DNA from: a virus
Lineage: Duplodnaviria > Heunggongvirae > Uroviricota > Caudoviricetes
Reading direction: 5' to 3' (one strand)
DNA: 14,367 nt
IMG/VR virus record: IMGVR_UViG_2654587792_000011
Below the pieces are notes generated by a model, which was not told the origin of the DNA, searched no databases, and saw only the letters and a program-made list of their open reading frames with translations. Below, in pieces: positions 4,416 through 11,427 of the stretch. Each line of letters starts with the position of its first letter. Position 1 is the stretch's first letter. Both the position numbers and the translations under genes were made by a program.

Positions 4416-4673
4416 TCACGCAGTAAACTCCTTCACCAGTATTTCAAACTGGCTTACCTGGCCTTCCAGTTCCGCCACGCAATCCACCAGCTCATCCACC
4501 GCCTTTTGTGTGCGGTGTTTTGCCAGCAGCAGATCACGCAGCGCCGGAGTAAGCTGCTTGCGGAGCGTATCCTTTGCCACGCTCGTTTTTTCCATCTGTT
4601 CAGCACAACGAAGCATCTCCTGCGCCTGCCGACGAAGTTGTTCCGGTGAAACAGTGATTGCTCTGTTGTTCAA
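4416..4673 (-). CDS. Hypothetical phage protein
   Basis: 85-aa ORF whose start overlaps the helicase stop by 4 nt. No recognisable motif. Confidence 0.45.
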   Translation of the reverse strand: MNNRAITVSPEQLRRQAQEMLRCAEQMEKTSVAKDTLRKQLTPALRDLLLAKHRTQKAVDELVDCVAELEGQVSQFEILVKEFTA

Positions 4674-6070
4674 AATAAACGCTCCGTTTTACTGCCCGAC
4701 ATGCGGTTATTGCTGTATCTGCGCGGATTGCCCGGCGTCATGGGTGTGGAAAGAACCCGGGCACTCTCCTGGTCCACAGGCAGAAAATGTCCGTTATGAA
4801 AACGCCGGTAAATGGTCCCGAGCGTGCCATTACGCTGTTTCGTGATGTTGATTTCTGCTATGCCTCTGGCCTGAGTTTCCGGGTTGTATACCTCATCCCT
4901 GTAAAGCATCAGAATGATGTCGGCATCCGCCTCGATTTCCCCGGAGTTTTTCAGGTCCGAGTTCATTGGGCGTTTATTGGGTCTGGATTCCACGCCGCGG
5001 GAGAGTTGGCTCAGAGCAATCAGCGGAAAACCGCCGGATTTTGCCAGGCTTTTAAGTCCCTTTGAGATTTCCCCCACAGCAAGGTCGTGACGCCCCGTGC
5101 TGCGGGTTTTAATCAGGCCGAGGTAATCGACCACAACCAGCGCCGTTTCCGGGTGTTTCATCCGGTGGTGCTTCGTGGTTGCACATATCTCATCAATGGT
5201 CAGGTTTGCCTGGTCCACCATCCAGATATTACGCCCCGTCATTCGTCCCACGCCCTGCGAGAAACGCGCCCAGTCTTCATCTTCAAAACGGGCAACAGAC
5301 TTAAGACGGGATACCGGCATTCCACCGGCAGCAGACACCATACGTTCACCAATCTGGATGTTCGCCATCTCCATGGTGAACAGAAGCACGCCATGCCCCT
5401 GCTCAGTCACCTTGTCGATGATGTCCAGCGCAAGTTCGGTTTTCCCCATCGAAGGACGGGCGGCAATGAATACCAGGTCTCCGGGCTCCATACCGCCCGT
5501 TTTTGCGTCCAGTTCATCAATACCGGTCATCAGCGCCCTGGATTTCTCCAGTCCCTGATTGCGGCATTCAACACGGTCGACCACTTCCGGAAGGACATCA
5601 TCAATGTGAACCGGCTGAATGACGCCCTTTCCGGTCGACAGTGAGGCCATCATGTTCTGCGCATCCTTCAGGGCATCCTCGGCTGCTTCACAGGTATACG
5701 CATCACGTAAATTCTGTAATGCTTCAGTCAGTGTTTTTTCTGCATCGCGCAGTGCGGCATTGCGCCGCAACGCTGCGACATAGTGCTCCAGTGAAGACTT
5801 CACCCAGGTTTTGCGTCCGGTGTCGGTAATCACCGGGGCAAGTTCCGGCATCTCATTGCACAGCAGTACGGGGTCAATGACGCCGGATATGCGAGCCTGT
5901 CTGCAAATCCCCGCGTAAATATCCCGGTACTGACGCACAAAAAATACATCCGCCGGAAGTGTGGCCAGAATATCCATCACTTCCGGATCGGCCCCACGCA
6001 GAAAAAACGCACCGATGACAGCGCCTTCCAGGTCATCGTTACGCCATGCCGGGGTGTTCTGGCTGGTCAT
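4670..6070 (-). CDS. Replicative DNA helicase, DnaB family
   Basis: 466 aa. Walker A ARPSMGKT, Walker B-like VVVDYLGL, overall DnaB-like RecA-fold C-terminal domain. Confidence 0.9.
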   Translation of the reverse strand: MTSQNTPAWRNDDLEGAVIGAFFLRGADPEVMDILATLPADVFFVRQYRDIYAGICRQARISGVIDPVLLCNEMPELAPVITDTGRKTWVKSSLEHYVAALRRNAALRDAEKTLTEALQNLRDAYTCEAAEDALKDAQNMMASLSTGKGVIQPVHIDDVLPEVVDRVECRNQGLEKSRALMTGIDELDAKTGGMEPGDLVFIAARPSMGKTELALDIIDKVTEQGHGVLLFTMEMANIQIGERMVSAAGGMPVSRLKSVARFEDEDWARFSQGVGRMTGRNIWMVDQANLTIDEICATTKHHRMKHPETALVVVDYLGLIKTRSTGRHDLAVGEISKGLKSLAKSGGFPLIALSQLSRGVESRPNKRPMNSDLKNSGEIEADADIILMLYRDEVYNPETQARGIAEINITKQRNGTLGTIYRRFHNGHFLPVDQESARVLSTPMTPGNPRRYSNNRMSGSKTERLF

Positions 6071-6954
6071 GCGGCAACACCTCCGATACGAGAACGGTAG
6101 CTGGGCCAGTTAAACGACAACCAGTTGCGCCCGCCATCGGTGATCCTGTCGGCAATCCGGGGACTGATGAACGCCCACAATTCTTCCGGTGAAAGGTTGC
6201 TGATCAGGATAGTTGGCAAAATACCCTCATACCGGGCATTGATAATTTCCTGCAAAATGGCCATTTCAGCCGCACTGCCAAACTGAACGCCGACTTCGTC
6301 GACAATCAGCAAATCCAGTGACGCATAATGCTCAATGACGTCATCCGCTGTTTTTTCACTGTCATTCCGCCAGCAGTTTTTCACAGCCCGGGTAAGGCGC
6401 ATCACGTCGGTGATCTCCACACTGGCCAGATAGTTACGGATGATGTGTTTTGCCATTGATACCGCCAGATGATTTTTCCCGGTACCGCAACTGCCGGTCA
6501 TAACAAGACTGGTACCGTTCTCCAGCATATCTGGCCAGTTCTCCGCATAGCGGCGACAGGCCGCAAGATTTCTGGCTGCGTCAGGATTAACCTCCAGATA
6601 ATTATCAAACTCGCAGTCCCGAAAACGCAGAGCAATTCCGGCGTTATCAGTCAGTTCTTCCGCCTTGAGGGACGACAGTTCCATGGTCAAATCACTGGCC
6701 TCAGCGATCAAGCAGTCAGGGCAGCATGAAATTTTTTCTCTGTCCTCGCCATTACGATCGATCCACACCAGTATATGCGTACGATATTTACCGTGTTTTT
6801 CGCAATATCCGCGACCTTCACGCATCAGGCAGGAACGATAAGGCCATGGCTTTTCGCCCTTCTGAGCAAATGCAATCTCTGCCCGTAACTCATCCATTCG
6901 CGCCTGTAGTCTTGTTTGTTTCTCACGTTGGTCAATCGTCATCATCGCTGTCAC
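6067..6954 (-). CDS. Helicase loader, DnaC/IstB-like AAA+ ATPase
   Basis: 295 aa. Walker A GSCGTGKNHLA, Walker B LLIVDEVG. Start overlaps the helicase gene by 4 nt. Confidence 0.85.
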   Translation of the reverse strand: MTAMMTIDQREKQTRLQARMDELRAEIAFAQKGEKPWPYRSCLMREGRGYCEKHGKYRTHILVWIDRNGEDREKISCCPDCLIAEASDLTMELSSLKAEELTDNAGIALRFRDCEFDNYLEVNPDAARNLAACRRYAENWPDMLENGTSLVMTGSCGTGKNHLAVSMAKHIIRNYLASVEITDVMRLTRAVKNCWRNDSEKTADDVIEHYASLDLLIVDEVGVQFGSAAEMAILQEIINARYEGILPTILISNLSPEELWAFISPRIADRITDGGRNWLSFNWPSYRSRIGGVAA

Positions 6955-6955
6955 C

Positions 6956-7948
6956 TCAGAATGTCAATTTGTTACTGGATTTACCGAATTTGTCAGACAT
7001 GGCTCCCAGGCCAGCCAGGACATCGACCTGTCGCTGTCGCCCACCTCCGTGAGCGGCTGGCTGTTGCCAGTAATCTTCGAAGTGACGATCGGGTCCAAAG
7101 AACGTCGCAGCCTGCTTCACGAACTGTGTGCCGATATTTCCTGTAGCACGTACCCAGGCGGCATACCGCTTCACGCCATCAAGCATGGTCTCCGGTTTTA
7201 TTCCCTCCCTGATACGGGCTTTCCAGGCTTTGAAGGCTGCTGACTTGGAATTGCCACCAGCACGTTTGGGATATTCCTGCCAGGCCTGTTCAAATTCCGG
7301 TGAATATTCCTGTCGGGCAGAACGCGCTGGCGCAGACGCGTCAGCGGATGCATCAATAGTGTTTTTAGTCTCCGTTGTAATCTCTGTAGTAATCTCTGTA
7401 TTTGTATCAACATTCGGCGTATCCCCTGTTCCGTTATGACGTCGGGGGGTGTTCCGTTTTAACGTAATAGCTGTATCGCTGATTGCATTATTGCTGTTAC
7501 TTTCTGGCGAAACAGAAGAAGGTGTGGTGATGGCCGCAATTGCCTGTGGGTTGATCCCGACAAACAAAATATTGCTGCATTTCACCCCATCGAGCATTTC
7601 CACCGTGCGTAAATCCAGAGTAATAAACCCTGCATCGCGCAGACGCTTCAGCGCATCTGCGGTTTCCCTTTTCCCGAAACCAAACTGCTCAGCAAACGCC
7701 TGGTAGCTTCTTTGCAGTTTGTCGCCCTGAAAACGCTTGCGATATCCCAGCAACGCTCCGGTGTGCTCATCCCTGACCTCTGTCGGGCGGTACCAGTAAA
7801 CGATCTCTGAAAGCAGAGCGATAGCCGTCGCATCCGGACGCCCACTGGGTAGTCGAATATATTTCCACCAGTTCGCAGGTGTAACATTGCCGGAAATATT
7901 AATTTGACCAATAGCCATAACTTCCGGTGTGGGGGCGTAACGGCTCAT
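6956..7948 (-). CDS. Replication initiator (lambda O-like replisome organiser)
   Basis: 330 aa directly upstream of the loader and helicase. Has a Ser/Thr/Asp-rich central linker with repeated peptide TEITTEITTE, and DNA direct repeats inside the gene (ori inside O, as in lambda). Confidence 0.55.
   Translation of the reverse strand: MSRYAPTPEVMAIGQINISGNVTPANWWKYIRLPSGRPDATAIALLSEIVYWYRPTEVRDEHTGALLGYRKRFQGDKLQRSYQAFAEQFGFGKRETADALKRLRDAGFITLDLRTVEMLDGVKCSNILFVGINPQAIAAITTPSSVSPESNSNNAISDTAITLKRNTPRRHNGTGDTPNVDTNTEITTEITTETKNTIDASADASAPARSARQEYSPEFEQAWQEYPKRAGGNSKSAAFKAWKARIREGIKPETMLDGVKRYAAWVRATGNIGTQFVKQAATFFGPDRHFEDYWQQPAAHGGGRQRQVDVLAGLGAMSDKFGKSSNKLTF
7377..7400. repeat. Tandem 12-bp direct repeat (GTAATCTCTGTA x2) with degenerate flanking copies; candidate origin iterons
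   Basis: Exact tandem copies at 7377-7388 and 7389-7400, flanked by related CTCCGTTGTAA and TTTGTATCAA. Located in the linker-coding part of the O-like gene. Confidence 0.4.
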
Positions 7949-8465: not shown

Positions 8466-8656
8466 GGACGCACCTCCGCCGTAGTTACGTATTTAACCGG
8501 GCTACCTTTCATTGAGATGGTTTCACACATCTCTGCCGCTTTCAGTTCCGCTGTTTTTCTGGATTTATAGCGACGGTGCCAGACAGATACATCCGTGCAA
8601 ACTGATACATCGTTTCTGTATTCCGTAGTGGAGATGATGATTTCGTAACTAATCAT
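8462..8656 (-). CDS. Hypothetical phage protein
   Basis: 64-aa ORF with 4-nt overlaps to both neighbours. Confidence 0.4.
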   Translation of the reverse strand: MISYEIIISTTEYRNDVSVCTDVSVWHRRYKSRKTAELKAAEMCETISMKGSPVKYVTTAEVRP

Positions 8657-9204
8657 GGGCGAACCTCCTTGTCAGAACCATTCAGCCTGGAATCAACAAG
8701 TGCAGCGCCAAAAACAGCATCACCAACACGGTCGTACAGTTTGCTAGCCAGCGGAGATTCAACGGCCTTAAGCATTGGATAAAGCTGGCTTGTCCAGATT
8801 TGATGGATTTCACGCAAATGCAGGTATACGCCTCTGGCGTTTCGTGCGACAGCTGACATATCAACCGCGTCAGCACCAGATAAATTCTTCTCCATCTGGT
8901 TAAAGGCGTTGATGTATGCCTCTTTGAACCGGGCTGCACGTTTGCCAGTAAAGCCCATAGCAAGGAACGCGAAGCCATCGCGGGTGATTTGATAGCAAGG
9001 TAGTTTGCGGCCTGTGCAATCGGTGTAATCACTGGGCTGAAAATTCAGCTCAGTGAATTCAACAGAGCACTCAAGCGTCTGGATTTTTTGAATAACGTTT
9101 TTGTGCTGCTTGCAGAAATATTCGGCAACGGCCAAAGAAGAGGTAACAGCCTTCCCATGGATAACATCAATTTTAGGGTGAGTTTGGGTAGGGGTGGTTG
9201 CCAT
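8653..9204 (-). CDS. Phage regulatory protein, Rha family
   Basis: N-terminus MATTPTQTHPKIDVIHGKAVTSSLAVAEYFCKQHKNVIQKI matches the Rha N-terminal signature. Start taken at the internal ATG 9202-9204 (GAGGA SD upstream), because the 9501 start would read through a terminator and a repeat-rich region. Confidence 0.65.
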   Translation of the reverse strand: MATTPTQTHPKIDVIHGKAVTSSLAVAEYFCKQHKNVIQKIQTLECSVEFTELNFQPSDYTDCTGRKLPCYQITRDGFAFLAMGFTGKRAARFKEAYINAFNQMEKNLSGADAVDMSAVARNARGVYLHLREIHQIWTSQLYPMLKAVESPLASKLYDRVGDAVFGAALVDSRLNGSDKEVRP

Positions 9205-9367
9205 AGTGACATCCTCATGTGCGAATTTTGAAAACTCACCACATGGGACGCCAATCACAGAGGTGGTGAGACGTACAGGGTTGGCGTAACCGGTCGCACA
9301 TGACCCCGGCGCATCTTTCGATGCCCCTGCACGCCCCACCATAATTTGGATGTGAGGAAACGTGCGC

Positions 9368-9389
9368 AAAAAAACCGCTGAAGCGCGGT
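9368..9389 (-). terminator. Intrinsic terminator inside the early-right operon (tR1-like)
   Basis: On the minus strand: stem ACCGC/GCGGU with 6-nt loop, followed by a U-run (complement of A368-A373 on plus). Confidence 0.45.
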
Positions 9390-9488
9390 TATGCGCATGT
9401 GCGAATTTCAGGACGCCAATCCCGGCACCCGCTTTATAAGGTGCGGAGACAGTGTAACGTCCCGAAATTGCAGAATCAATATTTGGTC

Positions 9489-9518
9489 TTGAAATGATCA
9501 TATAGCTGCTGATATCTT
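9489..9518 (+). promoter_or_regulatory. Candidate sigma70 promoter for a short plus-strand antisense RNA
   Basis: TTGAAA (9489-9494), 18-nt spacer, TG-extended TATCTT (9513-9518). Confidence 0.3.
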
Positions 9519-9524
9519 TAGAAC

Positions 9525-9610
9525 TGTTCTTGGATGTTTCGGAGCCGTTTTATGCGAAACAGCTCCCCGTTATTGATGTTGAGTGAGCCGGGTTACTCCC
9601 GGCTTTTTTT
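9525..9610 (+). ncRNA. Candidate OOP-like antisense small RNA, about 85 nt
   Basis: Runs from the predicted start after the 9489-9518 promoter to the intrinsic terminator at 9587-9610. Antisense to the 3' UTR of the minus-strand gene 9610-10317. No plus-strand ORF. Confidence 0.3.
9587..9610 (+). terminator. Intrinsic terminator on the plus strand
   Basis: Stem GCCGGG (9587-9592) / CCCGGC (9598-9603), loop TTACT, then seven T (9604-9610). Abuts the stop codon of the convergent minus-strand gene. Confidence 0.55.
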
Positions 9611-10317
9611 CATCGCTGCCAACCAATAACCTGAAATAACCCCATTTTCGGGTGATACCAGCGAGTCCCTCGCGGTTCTGCTTCCTCCATAACCCGATAA
9701 AAAGCAGCCATAAACGGTTCCACAGCAACAATTGCGCGACGTGACAACAATCCGTCCGGCGTCATGAACTCATGTGTGTCTGTAGGAATTTGATAGGCGT
9801 TCACCAGATTGCGGCATTTATCATCTGACAAACCGGTTTTTGCTTTCAGTTGGCGATATCCGGCATAGCCCTCACGAATAGTGCCCTTTTTAATTTGCTC
9901 GACTGTTTCAGCAACGTGGCTGACTTTTTCTTCCACCTGAGTGATCCGTTTCTGTTGGCGAACGGCTTCAAGAGCCATCGCGGCAACCATTTCGATTTCG
10001 CTCATTGGCTTACGGATCTGTTCTTCCAGTTCGCGCCAGCGATCTACCAGGCGAGCTGTGAATTCAGGACAGAGCTGTGCGACGACAATGATGCTGTCGC
10101 GCTTACCTCGTTCACCTTCGAATACATACGCGCTAGAAAATCGGCGAGGCCCAAGTGATTGTTTATTCTCAATTTCCACAGTCTGTGGAAATTGGATGAT
10201 TCCCTTTTTAGCCAGTGTTTCAATAGTTCTCTTAACACTATCTGGTCGGCTTCCCACCAGCTCTGCGATCTCAACGCTGGTCATGGATGCTTTGCCGTTA
10301 AAAATTGCGGTGTTCAT
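9610..10317 (-). CDS. Phage regulatory protein with Rha/antirepressor-like N-terminal HTH, in the cII position
   Basis: 235 aa. N-terminal MTSVEIAELVGSRPDSVKRTIETLAKKG resembles Rha/KilA-type phage regulator N-termini. Overlaps the cro-like gene by 4 nt. Not CII-like in size or sequence. Confidence 0.45.
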   Translation of the reverse strand: MNTAIFNGKASMTSVEIAELVGSRPDSVKRTIETLAKKGIIQFPQTVEIENKQSLGPRRFSSAYVFEGERGKRDSIIVVAQLCPEFTARLVDRWRELEEQIRKPMSEIEMVAAMALEAVRQQKRITQVEEKVSHVAETVEQIKKGTIREGYAGYRQLKAKTGLSDDKCRNLVNAYQIPTDTHEFMTPDGLLSRRAIVAVEPFMAAFYRVMEEAEPRGTRWYHPKMGLFQVIGWQR

Positions 10318-10604: not shown

Positions 10605-10737
10605 AACAAAGCACCAATATTAACTTTATAAATCAAGAATACATCAAGTTTAAATTAACATGCAAATTACAAAAGGATCGAATACACTAAAATCAAGTAA
10701 AGATTTATCCTTGTAAAGAAACCCACAGGATTTGGTC
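10605..10737. promoter_or_regulatory. Divergent promoter/operator region between the cro-like and cI genes (oR/pR/pRM-like)
   Basis: AT-rich. ATCAAG occurs three times (10632, 10643, 10692) and GTAAAGA twice (10697, 10713). Individual operators are not resolved. Confidence 0.5.
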
Positions 10738-11427
10738 ATGAAGAACGTCAAAAACACGGAAAATCGAATAGCCGCGATGCTGAAAGCAAAAGGATGGACT
10801 CAGGCTCAACTGGCCCGCAAGTTAGGTGTGAGTGCGCAATCAGTGCAGTACTGGACAACAGGAAAAACATTTCCACGGAGTGATAAGCTCGCGCATTTAT
10901 CAGAGATTAGCGGTTATCCACAATCCTGGTTCTTAGGTGAAGACTCCTCACCAACCTTTTCCTCGCAAGAGAAACACCAGACAAGAACAGATAGCGTCGT
11001 ATTTAATGTCCTTGATGTTGAGTTTAGTTGCGGTGATGGAACTCATGTCCGTGGTGACTTGATAGATGTAGTGCGCTCAATAGAACTTGATCCTGAATAT
11101 GCCCGACGTCTTGTTGGAAATCGGGCATTCAAAAATATAGAAATAGGTAACGCCAGAGGAGACAGTATGGCTCCCACAATCTCACCTGGCGACCTTCTTT
11201 TTCTTGATAAGACAGTAACTTATTTTGATGGCGATGGTATTTATGCATTTTGTTTTGATGGAGAATGCTACGTGAAAAGGCTTCAAAAAATTGGAAGCAA
11301 AATCATGGTGTTATCTGATAACCCCAATTATCAACCATGGAGCATCGAAAAAGAGGGGTTAGCTCTGCTTTATATCCAGTCTAAAGTGATCTCATCAGTA
11401 CCATTCAACATAAACAGATTTGGTTAG
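10738..11427 (+). CDS. cI: CI-type prophage repressor (HTH_XRE plus S24 LexA-like peptidase)
   Basis: N-terminal HTH GWTQAQLARKLGVSAQSVQYW; C-terminal peptidase motifs GDSMAPT (Ser) and YVKRL (Lys). ATG 10738 with AGGA SD is preferred over the track's TTG at 10732. Confidence 0.85.
   Translation: MKNVKNTENRIAAMLKAKGWTQAQLARKLGVSAQSVQYWTTGKTFPRSDKLAHLSEISGYPQSWFLGEDSSPTFSSQEKHQTRTDSVVFNVLDVEFSCGDGTHVRGDLIDVVRSIELDPEYARRLVGNRAFKNIEIGNARGDSMAPTISPGDLLFLDKTVTYFDGDGIYAFCFDGECYVKRLQKIGSKIMVLSDNPNYQPWSIEKEGLALLYIQSKVISSVPFNINRFG

Follow-up and report, generated by a model that had tools for sequence, protein, structure and literature searches.

The window, by which we mean the whole 14,367-nucleotide stretch of DNA that was analysed, comprises the immunity and early region of a lambdoid prophage (Table 1). 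A CI-type repressor gene lies on the plus strand, and the minus strand carries a PR-type operon with a Cro-like gene and a Roi/Rha-type helix-turn-helix gene (hereafter roi), then a long ORF with an IsrK-family RNA and a C4 antisense RNA in its 5′ part and, beyond this ORF, small ORFs followed by O-like, DnaC-like and DnaB-like replication genes. All matches to the Rfam families C4, IsrK and c4-a1b1 fall on the minus strand, at 9259-9457, and none on the strand of the candidate described below. With its predicted RNAs, the IsrK/C4 arrangement belongs to the kind of antirepressor control found in P1 immI and Gifsy-1. The IsrK RNA of Gifsy-1 is transcribed from a promoter of its own; some transcripts pass its terminator and continue into the antirepressor gene, and from this read-through RNA a C4-like RNA is processed (PMC4825925).

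Table 1. Features of the candidate unit and of its neighbourhood; positions count from the first nucleotide of the window.
Feature	Position	Strand	Basis or remark
O-like replication gene	6956-7948	-	about 1.5 kb from the candidate unit
Long ORF holding IsrK and C4 in its 5′ part	8653-9501	-	ORF list, Rfam
C4 antisense RNA family member	9259-9346	-	Rfam RF01695, 75.1 bits (gathering score 45)
IsrK-family RNA, with its own terminator at 9390-9373	9368-9444	-	Rfam RF01394, 62.3 bits (gathering score 50)
IsrK promoter, TTGATT-17-TACACT	9451-9479	-	read from sequence; start at 9444 equals Rfam isrK position 1
-35 hexamer TTGAAA of candidate unit	9489-9494	+	sequence, promoter scan
Extended -10 TGa-TATCTT, 18 nt past the -35	9510-9518	+	TGa 9510-9512, TATCTT 9513-9518
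Block GTTCTTGGAT at the predicted 5′ end of the RNA	9526-9535	+	predicted unpaired; 10/10 identical between classes
Hairpin 1, GGAGC-c-GTTTT / loop ATGC / GAAAC-a-GCTCC	9541-9566	+	folding
Intrinsic terminator: 8-bp stem, loop TTACT, T7	9585-9610	+	scan, -14.5 kcal/mol
Predicted small RNA, about 83-88 nt	9526-9610	+	start G9526 (or A9523), end about 9608-9610
Roi/Rha-type helix-turn-helix gene, second of the PR-type operon	9610-10317	-	'Roi' in phage PhiR49_2; PGAP 'Rha family transcriptional regulator'
Cro-like gene	10604-10314	-	ORF list/annotation
CI-type repressor	10732-11427	+	ORF list/annotation

The subject of this analysis is a candidate unit on the plus strand between roi and the IsrK promoter. 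A sequence-only reading had placed here a promoter TTGAAA-18-TG-TATCTT with a strong intrinsic terminator about 70 nt downstream, and both are found: the promoter occupies 9489-9518, and the terminator stem, which starts 66 nt past the end of the -10, consists of the arms GAGCCGGG (9585-9592) and CCCGGCTT (9598-9605) and runs into a T-run at 9604-9610. Among the terminator-like sites of the window it ranks third; in the minus-strand sense the hairpin has no U-tract after it. The transcript of about 85 nt that had been proposed agrees with the length now predicted. It had further been described as antisense to the 3′ end and UTR of the 9610-10317 gene, of which the latter part holds: the stop codon of roi abuts the T-run, and T9610 is the first base of the complement of that stop codon, so that the overlap is restricted to the 3′ UTR and spacer and touches the coding end by at most 1 nt. 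The two flanking ORFs do lie on the minus strand, as had been noted, but the left neighbour proper is the IsrK promoter, with which the candidate promoter stands back to back (9 bp between the two -35 hexamers), and the unit thus belongs to the antirepressor control region. The position assigned to it earlier, that of cII, is apt insofar as the unit directly follows the second gene of the PR operon, but the place is not a cII/O junction.

Neither the -10 of the candidate promoter (TATCTT) nor its spacer of 18 nt is optimal, and under a loose promoter definition the window is not enriched in such sites (13 found, 16.2 expected). We therefore applied a stricter definition, in which the -35 matches at no fewer than 5 of 6 positions and a TGn-extended -10 has A2 and T6. 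By this definition the candidate is the sole site on either strand, where 0.69 are expected per shuffled window. From this shuffle figure, the chance that a given terminator has a strict site 50-120 nt upstream of it, on its own strand, comes to ~0.002 by arithmetic, or to ~0.01-0.02 once the handful of strong terminators in the window is allowed for. As in genes for terminator-ended (Hfq-type) sRNAs, the interval has a promoter, no conserved ORF, and a GC-rich hairpin followed by at least 7 U; a terminator with a tail of 7-8 U is the usual 3′ module of such RNAs.

The annotation of the region to the left of the unit is misleading, since two RNA genes are buried in a protein call. PGAP labels the ORF at 8653-9501 as an 'ash family' or 'Rha family' protein, and the Pfam Phage_ASH match (aa 16-110, corresponding to nt 9456-9171) largely coincides with the IsrK and C4 RNA genes; the Rha domain of the antirepressor begins near 9144. 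The ATG at 9501 lies upstream of the 5′ end of IsrK and lacks a Shine-Dalgarno sequence, and its first five codons show 4 non-synonymous and 0 synonymous changes between the sequence classes described below. It is unlikely to be a genuine start; the annotation probably extends this ORF too far upstream, and the 'Ash' protein family may owe part of its signal to RNA conservation. The region 9259-9501 need not be entirely non-coding, since orf45 of Gifsy-1, a short ORF over the C4-like region, is translated.

Three further observations concern the surroundings. The intrinsic terminator of IsrK, on the minus strand, sits between PR and the replication genes (4670-7948), so that transcripts from PR must read through it, or another promoter is needed. 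Within the coding sequence of roi there is a perfect palindrome with 12-nt arms, CAATTTCCACAG-T-CTGTGGAAATTG (10170-10194), for which we estimate a chance of ~0.001 per window and which was found exactly in 40 of the fetched loci; a promoter-like TTGAAA-16-AATCAT (10196-10223) directly precedes it on the minus strand, and the pair has the appearance of a protein-binding site or of an internal promoter under operator control. Finally, the late-region end of the window carries on the minus strand (257-447 and 527-773) an STnc100-family sRNA (139 bits) and three tRNA genes; recent work connects this cluster with the PasD/STnc100 sRNAs of pathogenic E. coli (bioRxiv 10.64898/2026.05.13.724894).

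Positions 9440-9660 are 100% identical in E. coli O55:H7 RM12579 and ~99.5% identical in several Stx2a/Stx2d-converting phages, and phage PhiR49_2 matches the window at 96% over 2.1 kb. Other carriers of the unit are O111:H- 11128 and O157:H7 Z1836. Among 5,426 complete E. coli genomes this 221-bp interval was found in 324, and over at least 80% of its length in 237 (~4%). Pattern scans contributed ~100 further copies from IMG/VR and ~35 from metagenomes; the terminator pattern alone, scanned in genome contigs, proved too generic, returning unrelated terminators from many phyla. The copies of the unit fall into three classes, A (that of the window), B (the SE11 type) and C, and the pattern scans of IMG/VR and the metagenomes yielded no class beyond these. 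Classes B and C have a common promoter region and a different body, and class A differs from both throughout.

Comparing class A with B and C, we find conservation confined to particular elements. The -35 hexamer is identical (6/6; the sole exception among ~100 copies is TTGGAA, in L045), and the spacer keeps its length of 18 nt with 10 of 18 positions identical ungapped, or 12 of 18 with gaps. The TG of the extended -10 is kept and the -10 hexamer agrees at 5 of 6 positions, B and C both having TGg-TATTTT, so that 11 of the 12 hexamer positions are identical. The promoter is effectively represented by two independent versions, as B and C have it in common, and the significance of this hexamer conservation (p ~0.02, an estimate) is accordingly modest. 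The conservation of a CATAT within the spacer could be due to the ATG that the minus strand has at 9501. Right after the -10 the identity drops to ~50%, with a 6-nt insertion in class B, and then comes the block GTTCTTGGAT, identical at all 10 positions between flanks of ~50-60%, in which GTTCTTG is invariant in 25 of 25 unique sequences. The body again shows about 50-60% identity, with gaps, until the terminator is reached, where stem and T-run agree at 21 of 21 positions. The loop takes six forms among the unique sequences (TTACT, TTACTA, TCACTA, CCACTG, TCACTC and TGACTA), and the T-run is T7-8 in nearly all copies and T6 in 3. The promoter and terminator scans also call both elements in classes B and C, and the terminator accompanies the promoter in 98 of 98 copies, at a distance of 110-122 nt from the end of the -35 to the end of the T-run, which gives predicted RNAs of 79-91 nt over the classes. 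A kept seed and terminator with a variable body is a further property of Hfq-type sRNA genes. Taken together, the copies show the predicted parts of the unit, their constant co-occurrence and their selective conservation.

Between the block and the terminator the structure is retained where the sequence is not. Hairpin 1 starts 5-6 nt past the block GTTCTTGGAT in every class, with a different sequence in each: GGAGC-GTTTT/GAAAC-GCTCC in A, GGC-CTTC/GAAG-GCC in B and GGC-CTGC/GCAG-GCC in C, the last two being related by a compensatory change of T-A to G-C. These stems were compared by folding each class separately, the MAFFT alignment being out of register there between classes. The fold of the predicted RNA on the plus strand has a z-score of -2.66, and the interval on the minus strand one of -4.16; the plus-strand fold was the more stable in 12 of 12 variants tested. 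Changes that leave a wobble pair on one strand only are divided, with 4 favouring the plus strand and 2 the minus strand, and do not settle which strand is used. The former are both transitions in the terminator stem (L244 and L246, each giving U.G on the plus strand), a class B hairpin variant (GAGG) and L281, and the latter are two class A variants (L086 and L113) in which hairpin 1 is kept by G.U pairs that form solely on the minus strand. The conserved A-run after the stop codon of roi has no obvious use on the minus strand and corresponds to the U-tail on the plus strand, which favours a plus-strand unit.

We searched for partners of the predicted RNA in several ways. No second site complementary to the block GTTCTTGGAT occurs within the window; in the whole genome of a related phage the best trans target scores -20.4 kcal/mol, which does not surpass the mean best of -21.3 for shuffled queries; and no significant pairing was found with IsrK, C4 or the 5′ regions of ant, cI, cro and roi. 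An operator common to the unit and the cI-cro control region was also considered and rejected, as the two have only chance-level repeats in common. Inspection by eye likewise led us to reject a LexA box (there is no CTGT-N8-ACAG) and boxA/boxB (nut) elements, the hairpin loop varying in length and sequence.

The comparison favours a short non-coding unit, predicted to be transcribed from the plus strand and convergent with the PR-type operon. More specifically, we believe, with somewhat greater confidence than doubt, that the interval is a self-contained, moron-like unit that would make a functional non-coding RNA of ~85 nt. The flanks are in keeping with the comparison to morons, in that the unit has its own promoter and terminator and is present or absent between the same two flanks. 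In other phages the place between roi and the IsrK promoter is filled by a DUF4222 gene or a BRO-N gene, and since alternative fillers occur between the same flanks the unit behaves as an insertable module. Other phages with the IsrK module are homologous only up to the -35 of IsrK, upstream of which they carry a Lar gene, a DUF4222 gene or others, and those with such other upstream genes have no terminator on the plus strand.

The main rival to such an RNA gene is that the terminator serves as an insulator and nothing more, belonging to the 3′ end of roi and blocking the entry into roi, cro and cI of antisense transcription that arises in variable modules downstream, with a promoter that is weak, accidental or just tolerated and an RNA that, if made, is functionless. 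It gains weight from the phiP27-type phages, in which the same 3′ end of roi is followed by a different hairpin (GGCCGG-N9-CCGGCC and TTTCTTATTT) at the corresponding place and likewise in plus orientation, and after it by a BRO-N gene and then IsrK and C4. This hairpin was scanned as terminator-like with no promoter call upstream, which suggests that the terminator may belong to the roi module and not to an RNA gene, and BLAST homology between the window type and the phiP27 type begins at the hairpin. The negative target searches, in the related phage genome, the neighbouring RNAs and the 5′ regions, point the same way. However, a plus-oriented hairpin directly after roi is recurrent and not universal, and the existence of roi-carrying phages without any hairpin argues that an insulator is not obligatory. 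An insulator also leaves unexplained why diverged classes keep the promoter elements (-35, TG and -10) at a constant spacing, and why the 5′ block is invariant and hairpin 1 structurally conserved. We regard this explanation as unlikely, if by no means negligible, and the two that follow, which involve the minus-strand mRNA and a PRE-like promoter, as less likely still. (A separate observation on the phiP27-type phages, made in the region 1436-1530 of L002, which is phiP27, and in L008-L011, is that a TTGATT-18-TGaTATTGT lies inside the 5′ end of their BRO-N antirepressor gene; it is below the scan threshold, and the five aligned copies are identical across the site. Such a site would yield an RNA of ~58 nt antisense to the Shine-Dalgarno sequence and start codon of BRO-N.)

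The conserved elements could instead act in the minus-strand mRNA that reads through from PR, the two hairpins being stabilisers or processing sites at the 3′ end of cro-roi, or part of a Rho-dependent stop before IsrK. There is no doubt that PR transcribes the minus strand, the interval folds well on it (by the z-score given above), the L086 and L113 variants retain hairpin 1 there, and for the variant with a Rho-dependent stop it can be said that the spacer is C-rich and G-poor. What makes this explanation improbable to us is that a run of 7-8 A before a hairpin with no U-tract after it has no known role on that strand, that the terminator-stem variants wobble on the plus strand, that the varying loop does not resemble a protein-binding loop of the boxB type, and that the promoter-like elements are left unexplained. 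A counterpart of the lambda establishment promoter PRE, attenuated by the terminator, where its transcripts would normally stop, would under some condition send read-through transcripts antisense to roi and cro and into cI. Geometry is all that speaks for it, in that the promoter follows the gene in the cII position and points at cI through cro; against it, the terminator is strong (with its T7-8), cI is ~1.1 kb away, the good -35 implies no activator, and neither an antiterminator nor an activator site was identified, so that we consider it very improbable. Least credible of all is a gene for a small protein on the plus strand, which we rejected. The sequence-only reading had stated that promoter and terminator enclose no ORF; this is true of conserved ones, but a 31-codon ATG ORF does start at 9534. 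It has no Shine-Dalgarno sequence and reads through the terminator; in the other classes it is absent or out of frame, class C having no ATG there, and the encoded peptides differ.

Returning to the predicted small RNA, the unit would consist of a sigma-70 promoter with an extended -10, an unpaired 5′ block GUUCUUGGAU, a variable stem-loop and a Rho-independent terminator. Transcription from the candidate promoter would diverge from that of IsrK and run against that from PR, which drives the early rightward operon on the minus strand. As transcription from PR would run over the candidate promoter and occlude it, we infer that the RNA would be made mainly in the lysogen, where PR is repressed. 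It would be perfectly complementary to the roi-IsrK spacer of any transcript reading through from PR, and could base-pair with early transcripts, whether leaky or from a superinfecting phage, and cause them to be cut, following a logic like that of OOP and STnc6030, both discussed below. In this way cro-roi would be uncoupled from the IsrK-C4-antirepressor and replication genes that lie downstream. The 5′ block is conserved though it is not needed for antisense pairing in cis, which suggests an additional target in trans, probably in the host. The terminator may also prevent antisense transcription through roi and cro into cI.

A bolder and distinctly more doubtful proposal is that the RNA would be a third riboregulator of the IsrK/C4 switch, expressed in the lysogen, which competes with the IsrK promoter, cuts leaky or incoming early transcripts and regulates a host mRNA via GUUCUUGGAU. 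The separation of the two -35 hexamers means that the polymerase footprints of both promoters should overlap. If the proposal were true, the stability of these prophages, those of Stx2a phages among them, would be tied to host physiology. Antirepressor modules time the lytic switch of many lambdoid prophages, including Shiga-toxin phages, and control of the IsrK/C4 module by RNA is established; a further small RNA, transcribed divergently at its upstream border, would give this control one more layer. The unit could thus affect spontaneous induction, the release of toxin or immunity to superinfection.

The likeness to lambda OOP that had been proposed for this interval is one of organisation. 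According to the summary in PMC7067206 (references 40 and 41 therein), OOP is an RNA of 77 nt made from the promoter Po and antisense to the 3′ end of cII, and in the Salmonella prophage BTP1 an RNA in the OOP position has been detected by transcriptomics (PMC7067206). At the level of sequence, the candidate resembles it in being a short non-coding unit with its own sigma-70 promoter and intrinsic terminator, placed opposite to PR and after the second gene of the PR operon. It differs in its partner, which is a Roi/Rha-type helix-turn-helix gene in place of cII, and in its location between that gene and the IsrK promoter as opposed to the cII/O junction; whereas OOP acts on cII through an overlap with its coding 3′ end, the target mRNA being cut in an RNase III-dependent manner, the overlap with roi is at most the one nucleotide noted above. 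Similarity to oop itself is absent, the local alignment to lambda 38560-38729 scoring 16 compared to a mean of 16.1 for shuffled sequences. Nor does the plus strand of the unit belong to an Rfam family, the matches being only terminator look-alikes (the best, sroD, has 24.5 bits with a gathering score of 50); classes B and C likewise match no plus-strand family.

The closest neighbours, the IsrK RNA of Gifsy-1 and the C4 RNA of P1/P7, govern an antirepressor (PMC4825925). They are alike in adjoining the candidate in one control region and in being short RNAs that are terminator-ended or processed; they differ in lying on the opposite strand and in having unrelated sequence and structure, and in other phages the IsrK module occurs without the candidate unit. 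The sar RNA of P22 is a small antisense RNA in the arc-ant region, with its promoter inside ant, that covers the ant ribosome-binding site. It has in common with the candidate that a small RNA convergent with the operon promoter lies in an antirepressor control region with its terminator beside the upstream gene, but the candidate RNA, which lies upstream of the IsrK promoter, does not cover a ribosome-binding site. The layout of sar is resembled by the candidate ~58 nt RNA of the phiP27-type phages.

For an RNA expressed in the lysogen and antisense to the early operon, a plausible model is STnc6030 of prophage BTP1, an antisense RNA that acts in the lysogen on the transcripts of incoming phage and excludes superinfection (PMC7067206); it differs in its length of 786 nt and in lying in late genes. 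Stand-alone sRNA genes composed of a promoter and a terminator are also known from the lambdoid prophages of pathogenic E. coli, namely AgvB, AsxR, EcOnc and Pas (PMC4104026; bioRxiv 10.64898/2026.05.13.724894). These are located in late or tail regions and none maps to the candidate interval. Identity with particular members was ruled out: EcOnc22/23/24 (~85 nt) map to the tail region in Sakai prophages; EcOnc10 and EcOnc51 are hosted by Sakai prophage Sp12, whose early region is a different one and lacks the roi/IsrK module; and the Pas sRNAs lie in late regions, with flanks that have no C4 or IsrK matches. A literature search with the conserved block gave no relevant paper, and a string search of the supplement of Tree et al. 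gave nothing relevant. What the candidate has in common with AgvB, AsxR, EcOnc and Pas is that variant classes keep the seed and the terminator and vary elsewhere, and the unit described here is a plausible, so far undescribed, addition to this class of prophage sRNAs.
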